From sequence record NC_054924.1: a stretch of 64,000 nt of DNA, one strand, 5' to 3'. Below are positions 5,740-9,525 of this stretch, one piece after another. This DNA comes from Escherichia phage vB_EcoM_Lutter. The translations under genes were made by a program, and so were the position numbers. The notes beneath the pieces were generated by a model. That model saw nothing but the letters and a program-made list of their open reading frames with translations, searched no databases and was not told the origin of the DNA. How positions within the stretch are numbered: the first letter of the stretch is position 1; the number at the start of each line of letters is the position of its first letter.

Positions 5740-7364
<1,625 letters not shown>

Positions 7365-7365
<1 letters not shown>

Positions 7366-7622
7366 TGGAAGGTTTAATTGAAGCTATTAAATCAAACGAC
7401 CTCGTAGCCGCTCGTAAATTATTTGCTGAAGCCATGGCTGCAAGAACGATTGATTTAATTAAAGAAGAAAAAATTGCTATCGCTCGTAATTTCTTAATTG
7501 AAGGTGAAGAACCTGATGATGAGGATGATGACGAAGACGAGGATGATGAAGATAGCGATGATAAAGACGACAAAAAAGACAAAGATTCTGACGAAGATGA
7601 CGAAGACGAGGATGATGAATAA
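7365..7622 (+). CDS. 67: Prohead core protein gp67 with acidic D/E-rich C-terminal tail
   Basis: 85 aa, TAATG overlap with gene 20 stop; C-terminal 35 residues almost entirely D/E. Confidence 0.8.
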
Positions 7623-8047
7623 TGCTTCTGATCCCTGAAACTCATGAATTAGTTCTCGAGAATGTCGAAGCACTTATTCCTGAAGCACAGGGTCGCTTTG
7701 ACGAATTGTCTTCTGCTTTAAATAAAGACGATATAAATACAATTGTCGAGAATATGCTTGATGATGAAACTGATTTAGCGATTGCATTAGCTTCTATTAA
7801 TGAAGATATGCCGCTAAATGAATTCATCGTTAAACATGTTTCTGCTCGTGGTGAAATTACACGTACCAAAGACCGCAAGACGCGTGAACGTAATGCATTT
7901 CAAACCACCGGGCTGTCTAAAGCAAAACGTAGACAAATTGCTCGCAAAGCTACCAAAACGAAGATTGCCAATCCAGCAGGTCAATCTCGTGCTCAGCGTA
8001 AGCGTAAAAAAGCTCTTAAACGCCGTAAAGCATTAGGATTAAGCTAA
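7622..8047 (+). CDS. 68: Prohead core protein gp68
   Basis: 141 aa, basic C-terminus; position between 67 and 21 as in T4. Confidence 0.8.
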
Positions 8048-8685
8048 TGAATGAACCCCAATTACTAATTGAAACTTGGGGTCAACCTGGCGAAATTATT
8101 GATGGCGTACCAATGCTTGAATCCCACGATGGAAAAGACTTAGGTTTAAAACCTGGTTTATACATCGAAGGAATATTCATGCAAGCGGAAGTCGTCAATA
8201 GAAATAAACGTCTTTATCCAAAACGCATATTAGAAAAAGCGGTAAAAGACTATATCAATGAGCAAGTTTTAACTAAACAAGCTCTCGGAGAATTAAATCA
8301 TCCTCCACGCGCTAATGTTGACCCGATGCAAGCCGCTATCATTATAGAAGATATGTGGTGGAAAGGAAATGACGTATACGGACGAGCTCGTGTTATTGAA
8401 GGTGACCATGGTCCTGGAGATAAATTAGCAGCTAATATTCGTGCCGGATGGATTCCAGGAGTTTCTTCTCGTGGATTAGGTTCATTGACTGACACAAATA
8501 AAGGTTATCGTATCGTAAACGAAGGATTCAAATTAACTGTAGGTGTTGATGCAGTATGGGGTCCAAGTGCTCCAGATGCATGGGTAACTCCTAAGGAAAT
8601 TACCGAATCACAGACGGCGGAAGCCGATACAAGTGCCGATGACGCCTATATGGCTCTCGCAGAGGCCATGAAAAAAGCGTTATAA
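8047..8685 (+). CDS. 21: Prohead protease gp21
   Basis: 212 aa; sequence [23 protein letters not shown]... recognised as T4 gp21. Confidence 0.95.
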   Translation: MNEPQLLIETWGQPGEIIDGVPMLESHDGKDLGLKPGLYIEGIFMQAEVVNRNKRLYPKRILEKAVKDYINEQVLTKQALGELNHPPRANVDPMQAAIIIEDMWWKGNDVYGRARVIEGDHGPGDKLAANIRAGWIPGVSSRGLGSLTDTNKGYRIVNEGFKLTVGVDAVWGPSAPDAWVTPKEITESQTAEADTSADDAYMALAEAMKKAL

Positions 8686-8715: not shown

Positions 8716-9525
8716 ATGCTTAAAGAACAACTGATTGCCGAAGCGCAGAAAATTGATGCTTCCGTTGCTCTTGATAGTATTTTCGAATCAGTTAATATTT
8801 CTCCGGAAGCAAAAGAAACTTTCGGCACTGTATTCGAAGCTACCGTCAAGCAGCACGCCGTTAAATTAGCTGAATCTCATATCGCTAAAATTGCTGAAAA
8901 AGCAGAAGAAGAAGTAGAAAAAAATAAAGAAGAAGCCGAAGAAAAAGCTGAGAAGAAAATCGCTGAGCAAGCTTCTAAATTCCTTGACCATCTTGCAAAA
9001 GAATGGCTCACTGAAAATAAATTAGCAGTAGATAAAGGTATCAAAGCCGAACTGTTTGAATCCATGCTTGGTGGATTGAAAGAGCTCTTTGTTGAACACA
9101 ACGTTGTTGTTCCAGAAGAATCAGTTGATGTTGTAGCTGAAATGGAAGAAGAGCTGCAAGAACATAAAGAAGAATCAGCTCGTCTGTTCGAAGAACTCAA
9201 TAAGCGTGACGCATATATCAATTATGTGCAGCGTGAAGTGGCATTGAGCGAAAGTACTAAAGATCTGACTGAGTCTCAAAAAGAAAAAGTCTCTGCTCTG
9301 GTCGAAGGTATGGATTATTCAGATGCATTCTCAAGTAAATTGAGTGCAATCGTAGAAATGGTGAAGAAATCTAATAAAGATGAAAGCACTATTACTGAGA
9401 GTATAAATACTCCTGATACTGAAGCAGCCGGACTGAATTTCGTCACTGAAGCTGTAGAAGATAAAGCTGCACAGGGTGCAGAAGATATTGTAAGTGTATA
9501 TGCGAAAGTCGCATCTCGTTTCTAA
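8716..9525 (+). CDS. 22: Prohead scaffolding core protein gp22
   Basis: 269 aa, E/K-rich coiled-coil-like scaffold; position as in T4. Confidence 0.9.
   Translation: MLKEQLIAEAQKIDASVALDSIFESVNISPEAKETFGTVFEATVKQHAVKLAESHIAKIAEKAEEEVEKNKEEAEEKAEKKIAEQASKFLDHLAKEWLTENKLAVDKGIKAELFESMLGGLKELFVEHNVVVPEESVDVVAEMEEELQEHKEESARLFEELNKRDAYINYVQREVALSESTKDLTESQKEKVSALVEGMDYSDAFSSKLSAIVEMVKKSNKDESTITESINTPDTEAAGLNFVTEAVEDKAAQGAEDIVSVYAKVASRF
9402..9409 (+). promoter_or_regulatory. Late promoter TATAAATA inside gene 22, upstream of gene 23
   Basis: Exact TATAAATA 135 nt upstream of the gene 23 ATG, inside the 3' end of gene 22. Confidence 0.55.

Follow-up and report, generated by a model that had tools for sequence, protein, structure and literature searches.

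Introduction

The scaffolding core of the bacteriophage T4 prohead contains approximately 340 copies of the small protein gp67 (PMC9958956, PMC5694885). Mutations in gene 67 are described in PMC1079782 as giving rise to aberrant or isometric heads (citing Volker 1982, Keller 1986/1988), and the gene is described as essential in the title of Volker 1982, cited there. The protease gp21 cuts on the C-terminal side of glutamate within L/I-x-E motifs (PMC9026906), and gp67 is cut by gp21 to multiple fragments, which mostly leave the head (PMC9026906, PMC9958956, PMC5694885, PMC7411985). Two further T4 proteins, gp68 and gp22, share the scaffolding core with gp67 and are likewise gp21 substrates cleaved behind L/I-x-E; both carry strongly charged low-complexity segments. 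Their sequences are unrelated to that of gp67; gp68 differs in having an acidic N-terminal half and a basic C-terminal half, and gp22 is a far larger protein that makes up the main scaffold. The phage DNA-binding proteins T4 gp32 and T7 gp2.5 end in disordered, polyanionic tails that work by charge. These differ from gp67 in family, location and process (replication, not capsid assembly), and the likeness is one of analogy alone.

Here we describe gene 67 of Escherichia phage vB_EcoM_Lutter (NC_054924.1), which lies in a stretch of 64,000 nucleotides that was analysed as a whole (the window). The acidic tail of gp67 is already known, and the difference in length between the Lutter and T4 proteins is an ordinary repeat-driven polymorphism. 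Our joint reading, to which we assign a probability of roughly 0.85, is that the gene encodes a Tequatrovirus gp67 with a helical head domain and a polyanionic tail that is cut by gp21, the length difference being neutral or nearly neutral.

Results and discussion

Gene 67 and its neighbourhood

Positions 7365 to 7622 of the plus strand hold 85 codons and a TAA stop, and correspond to gene 67, encoding the prohead core protein gp67 (‘PIP’, which we take to stand for precursor of internal peptide; GenBank notes on gp67 read ‘precursor to internal peptides’). The 85-aa ORF matched Pfam PF17634 (GP67) with 146.4 bits (cutoff 27, E=3.4e-43) over model positions 1–80 of 80, and PHROG 1064 ‘prohead’ with E=1.4e-31. 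Profile matching of the flanking ORFs placed gp20 upstream, and gp68, gp21 and gp22 downstream.

5791 to 7365, plus strand: portal gene 20, 524 aa from ATG (Portal_T4, PF07230)
7365 to 7622, plus strand: gene 67, 85 aa (PF17634, PHROG 1064, T4 synteny)
7622 to 8047, plus strand: gene 68, prohead core protein, 141 aa (PHROG 1049 ‘head scaffolding protein’)
8047 to 8685, plus strand: gene 21, protease, 212 aa (Peptidase_S77, PF03420)
8716 to 9525, plus strand: gene 22, scaffold, 269 aa (T4_CASP, PF25623)

The order 20-67-68-21-22 is that annotated in T4 (KJ477684.1), where gp67 has the same place between genes 20 and 68, and was also found in 14 other phages. A 5-kb stretch around gene 67 shares 98–99% identity with many Tequatrovirus genomes. 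The profile matches, the synteny and the identity of residues 1–50 to T4 bear out the name of prohead core protein gp67, which the sequence-only reading had given to the ORF; on this evidence the gene comes from a Tequatrovirus (T4-like phage) and the ORF is the ortholog of T4 gp67, with nothing in the evidence gathered contradicting the identification. A Pfam scan matched the other four ORFs of the cluster and returned no family for the 141-aa gp68 ORF; a structure search found no solved structure for gp67, and Rfam gave no family at gathering score on either strand of the window (1 to 64000).

The program-made ORF list starts the portal ORF at a TTG at 5779 (5779 to 7365, 528 aa). The start equivalent to that of T4 is the ATG at 5791, which fits the 1575-nt gene 20 CDS in T4 and five related phages.

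When gp67 was compared by tblastn with the phage collection, the BLAST low-complexity filter ended every alignment at residue 45–50, so that the tail can look ‘unmatched’ though it is matched. With the filter on, no record covers 80% of the gp67 query despite hundreds that are near-identical. Low-complexity filtering is thus a trap for automated annotation of gp67.

Composition and predicted structure of the tail

The protein divides into two parts of very different composition.

7365 to 7502, plus strand: head domain, residues 1–46 (MEGLIE...NFLIE), net charge −1, predicted helical, identical to T4
7503 to 7619, plus strand: acidic tail, G47–E85, 39 aa comprising 31 Asp/Glu, 4 Lys, 2 Ser, 1 Gly and 1 Pro

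Codon 46 (Glu) begins at base 7500, and 7620–7622 is the TAA stop. The last 35 residues (21 Asp, 8 Glu, 4 Lys, 2 Ser) agree with their initial description as almost purely Asp/Glu with a few Lys/Ser. Taken from Gly47, the tail is 79% Asp/Glu, has a net charge of −27 and a mass of ~4.6 kDa (4567 Da), and is predicted to be coil. Across all six-frame ORFs of the 64-kb window it provides the most acidic 35-residue stretch (29/35 Asp+Glu), followed by the C-terminus of gp20 (around 7255–7360) with 15/35; at the background Asp+Glu fraction of 0.126, the binomial probability of the tail's acidity is ~6e-21.

A single-sequence AlphaFold2 model showed helices at residues 2–9 and 13–45, with no secondary structure past residue 46. 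The mean pLDDT was 75.8, with tail values of 60–70 rather than below 50. The tail is predicted to be disordered on the strength of this model.

Comparison with T4 gp67

T4 gp67 has 80 aa, encoded by 243 nt including the stop codon (KJ477684.1). The CDS length and the alignment substantiate the earlier statement that the Lutter tail, in a protein of 85 aa, is longer than that of T4. The two proteins are 94% identical overall and 100% identical over residues 1–50, and from this 94% identity we infer the membership of Lutter gp67 in the core and its role in head shape. The calculated masses are 9680 Da for Lutter and 9106 Da for T4. The latter agrees with the 9.1 kDa of T4 gp67, whose gene was reportedly sequenced by Volker et al. 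in 1982 (J Mol Biol 161:479).

The T4 tail follows the same plan, with GEEP... at its start, an internal SDDKDDKKD block and EDEDDE at the C-terminus, and has 34 residues with a net charge of −24 (39 residues and −27 in Lutter). Two additional residues lie in the first Asp/Glu run of Lutter, and three more (DED) derive from an extra copy of a 9-nt unit; the substitutions are E51D, E55D and E73K (T4 position 71). In the DNA alignment these additions appear as two in-frame indels, +6 nt in the first Asp/Glu run and +9 nt for an extra GACGAAGAY copy, both located in repeats.

7514 to 7570, plus strand: imperfect 3/9/15-nt GAN tandem array with the 6-nt indel (TRF; DNA alignment with T4 and vB_Eco_EL)
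7589 to 7618, plus strand: 9-nt tandem array TGACGAAGA, 3.3 copies, with the extra copy GACGAAGAY (TRF; DNA alignment)

The position of the indels within imperfect arrays of period 3, 9 and 15 nt fits replication slippage or unequal recombination. Repetitive GAN sequence is also error-prone on some sequencing platforms, and the extra residues could in principle have arisen when this low-complexity repeat was sequenced or assembled wrongly. We consider this extremely unlikely, since both indels are in frame, the identical tail is present in an independent isolate, Shigella phage sb3, and near-identical alleles of 84 aa (vB_Eco_EL) and 86 aa (KNP5) exist.

Length alleles within Tequatrovirus

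Variation in length within the genus was examined by megablast with a 458-nt query spanning gene 67, the ranked matches being sampled at regular intervals. This gave 39 full-length matches in Tequatrovirus, whose spans ran from 416 to 461 nt with every difference a multiple of 3, and which imply the following gp67 lengths.

71 aa: 1 record
77 aa: 2 records
78 aa: 2 records
79 aa (mode): 15 records
80 aa: 4 records
81 aa: 4 records
82 aa: 8 records
85 aa: 2 records
86 aa: 1 record

Annotated gp67 coding sequences of KNP5 (86 aa), sb3 (85 aa), 236Ecol005PP (71 aa) and T2 (77 aa) have constant flanks, with the change in length wholly inside gene 67. An annotated protein of 84 aa in vB_Eco_EL, from the 5-kb comparison, stands outside the 39-record sample. 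The gp67 of Shigella phage sb3 (PQ666541.1) has 85 aa and a tail identical, residue for residue, to that of Lutter, and Shigella phage KNP5 (NC_055713.1) has the Lutter tail plus one Asp, giving 86 aa; both differ from Lutter and T4 in carrying Phe19 instead of Leu19. With alleles of 71–86 aa coexisting in Tequatrovirus and the identical tail already in GenBank, a length of 85 aa is unremarkable.

Tequatrovirus tails of 25–40 aa carry net charges of −18 to −28, a range indicating that charge is loosely constrained.

A longer tail might nevertheless be a functional adaptation, in which the five extra acidic residues of a protein that helps to set the shape and length of the head tune core geometry or the capacity for packaged DNA. 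The Lutter allele is near the long, acidic extreme for the genus (85 aa with a net charge of −27, where the commonest length is 79 aa), and PMC1079782 attributes isometric heads to mutants of genes 67 and 68. Against such tuning, the alleles of 71–86 aa are scattered among phages that are ~90–99% identical over the 458-nt query and mostly 95–99% identical over a 5-kb head-gene stretch, and the indels fall in slippage-prone tandem repeats. Moreover, other genera tolerate tails of 19–47 aa on the same 46-aa head (see below). Taken with these points, adaptation is a very unlikely explanation of the extra residues.

Three minor observations concern the same records. A constant net tail charge despite varying length was considered as a property of Tequatrovirus; it is weakly true (−18 to −28) and no claim is drawn from it. 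PV654520.1, labelled ‘Pseudomonas phage vB_PSGBLB0006’ (P. aeruginosa host, 142 kb), is 95.9% identical to this region of an E. coli Tequatrovirus, and the host label may therefore be wrong or the record contaminated. At 193.6 kb, the KNP5 record exceeds the other Tequatrovirus records among the matches listed by ~25 kb.

A conserved head and junction with a variable tail

Two sets of orthologs were compared. The GenBank set (n=15) consisted of seven Tequatrovirus phages, Lutter included, together with RB69, JM10, phiR1-RT, CIP9, 44RR2.8t, MP1, phiP4-3 and ZZ1. A scan of IMG/VR with gp67 as the query was swamped by acidic patterns (600 stretches, of which 2 were true loci), and a scan with a gp68 alignment was substituted: 51 T4-like contigs were located via the gp68 gene and gene 67 was read upstream, giving 46 unique proteins.

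Head length: 46 aa in all GenBank proteins; in IMG/VR, 46 aa in 40, 47 aa in 5 and 49 aa in 1
Junction: hydrophobic-x-Glu then Gly-Glu in both sets; in IMG/VR the next residue is Glu in 41/46
Junction P3 residue: L, M, V or F in GenBank; M in 31, L in 8, V in 6 and F in 1 in IMG/VR
Tail length: 23–47 aa in GenBank; 19–47 aa (median 34) in IMG/VR
Tail Asp/Glu fraction: 46–92% in GenBank; 46–86% in IMG/VR
Tail net charge: −8 to −28 in GenBank; −8 to −26 (median −17) in IMG/VR

Throughout the orthologs the net charge of the head is near zero (−4 to +1) and the tail is almost without hydrophobic residues. The E|GE junction is invariant in all ~60 orthologs, drawn from many genera, and the IMG/VR proteins end in a conserved Asp/Glu hexapeptide, most commonly DDEDDE or EDEDDE. 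Lutter gp67 shares this architecture: ~46 residues of helical head lead through E|GE into the acidic tail. Judged from these alignments, constraint falls on the head domain and the junction, and all that is conserved of the tail is that it is long, acidic and without hydrophobics. That head length and junction stay put while the acidic tail varies freely is a small descriptive result that could guide a mutational study of tail function.

Candidate gp21 cleavage sites

Inspection of Lutter gp67 for gp21 sites, a check proposed when the tail was first described, gave L/I-x-E motifs ending at residues 6, 34 and 46, exactly as in T4.

7374 to 7382, plus strand: L4-I5-E6, then A7, L/I-x-E motif, same in T4
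7458 to 7466, plus strand: I32-K33-E34, then E35, L/I-x-E motif, same in T4
7494 to 7505, plus strand: L44-I45-E46|G47 junction, L/I-x-E match with invariant E|GE, candidate gp21 site detaching the tail

The first motif is not conserved in RB69, ZZ1, MP1, phiP4-3 or CIP9. Only the third keeps its position throughout the family, in the form hydrophobic-x-E|GE, and of the three it is therefore the likeliest to be a cut that matters for function. The P3 residue is M, V or F in phages other than the T4 and RB69 groups, so that the strict T4 motif is absent there. A gp21 cut at Glu46|Gly47 would free a 39-residue tail peptide of 4567 Da (3993 Da for the T4 counterpart). The tail has no Leu or Ile, and indels within it therefore cannot create or destroy L/I-x-E sites. 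The literature consulted gave only general statements on where gp67 is cut and on the identity of the ‘internal peptides’, and named no partner of the tail.

Proposed role of the tail

We infer an electrostatic role for the tail in the scaffolding core. The head domain of gp67 would anchor or dock the protein in the gp22-based core, and the tail would be a flexible polyanion, its role resting on bulk negative charge and not on exact sequence or length. In such an arrangement the tail could offset the charge of basic constituents of the core, namely the internal proteins and the C-terminal half of gp68, or hold them apart, and could keep nucleic acid out of the core. At maturation, gp21 would cut L44-I45-E46|G47 and free the tail peptide of ~4.6 kDa. 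The difference between 85 and 80 aa would then be a neutral or nearly neutral polymorphism produced by slippage or recombination.

A stronger proposal treats the tail as a product in its own right, a polyanionic peptide of ~2–5 kDa released by gp21, with its total charge as the functional quantity. The universal conservation of only the 46-aa head and E|GE, with a tail that drifts, leaves room for this reading, which we nonetheless regard as distinctly unlikely. If it were true, the charge per head (~340 × −27, or roughly −9000) would matter in itself, the peptide could serve as a DNA-mimicking placeholder or a counter-ion for the basic internal proteins, and alleles with longer or shorter tails would adjust the ionic conditions inside the head.

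Gene overlaps and the relationship to gp68

Genes 20 and 67, and likewise 67 and 68, overlap by one base as TAATG on the plus strand (7363–7367 and 7620–7624). A GAGGA at 7354–7358 precedes the ATG of gene 67 by 6 nt, and a second occurs within the tail-coding sequence.

7608 to 7612, plus strand: GAGGA, Shine-Dalgarno-like motif of gene 68, 9 nt upstream of the ATG

This second motif falls within the codons that end the tail, GAC GAG GAT GAT GAA, and the phiR1-RT record annotates a ribosome-binding site at the equivalent place. Lutter, T4 and vB_Eco_EL do not differ in the DNA of this 3' segment. Use of the last tail codons as the ribosome-binding site of gene 68 plausibly explains why the 3' end is constant and the indels lie upstream, and such dual use is plausibly also behind the conserved terminal Asp/Glu hexapeptide.

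The adjacent gp68 is bipartite, with an acidic N-terminal half (net ~−15) and a basic C-terminal half (residues ~68–141, net ~+23). This raises the idea that the two proteins, products of translationally coupled genes, form a stoichiometric salt-bridge pair through the tail of gp67 and the C-terminal half of gp68. The opposed charges (−27 and ~+23), the TAATG overlap and the isometric heads that PMC1079782 describes for mutations in either gene would all be in keeping with pairing. However, the charges do not covary: tail charge (−8 to −27) and that of the gp68 C-terminal half (+21 to +26) gave a Spearman coefficient of 0.006 in 10 phages, and −0.05 with near-duplicates removed (n=8). Furthermore, the copy numbers are unequal, ~340 for gp67 and ~240 for gp68 (PMC9958956), and gp68 is reported as non-essential and gene 67 as essential (PMC9958956, PMC1079782). 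A fixed pairing of this kind is consequently unlikely, and bulk charge in the core is the reading that we retain.

Tail charge did correlate with the total charge of gp68 (rho 0.84; 0.71 with n=8), in the non-compensating direction. This most likely reflects shared phylogeny and is left uninterpreted.

The boundary between the two halves of gp68 (residues 65–72) is conserved in 10/10 phages as L-N-E|F-I-V-K-H-V, 44RR2.8t having I-D-E|A-I-V-K-H-V. The L-N-E sequence fits L/I-x-E, and gp21 may part the oppositely charged halves there, in parallel with E|GE of gp67.

The antisense serine-rich reading frame

Opposite gene 67 lies a long reading frame that had been attributed to the acidic tail.

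7316 to 7645, minus strand: antisense poly-Ser ORF of 109 aa, a non-gene (frame analysis; boundaries not conserved outside the genus)

Frame analysis upholds the attribution, as the reverse complement of GAN-GAN reads, in one frame, as TCN-TCN (Ser). The run of serines was present in every genus compared, with the ATG and stop of the ORF retained only among the near-identical Tequatroviruses; the frame has no Met in RB69, MP1 and phiR1-RT, and its boundaries differ in 44RR, ZZ1 and CIP9. That the ORF is uninterrupted, starts with ATG and is retained in all the Tequatroviruses inspected might be taken as a sign of a real overlapping gene. Such a gene is almost certainly not present, given that the serines are an automatic outcome of antisense GAN codons, that the limits of the ORF are lost or shifted in the six phages just named, outside Tequatrovirus, and that it sits within a tightly packed, translationally coupled cluster on the plus strand. 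For annotation hygiene, the spurious 109-aa antisense ORF is accounted for.
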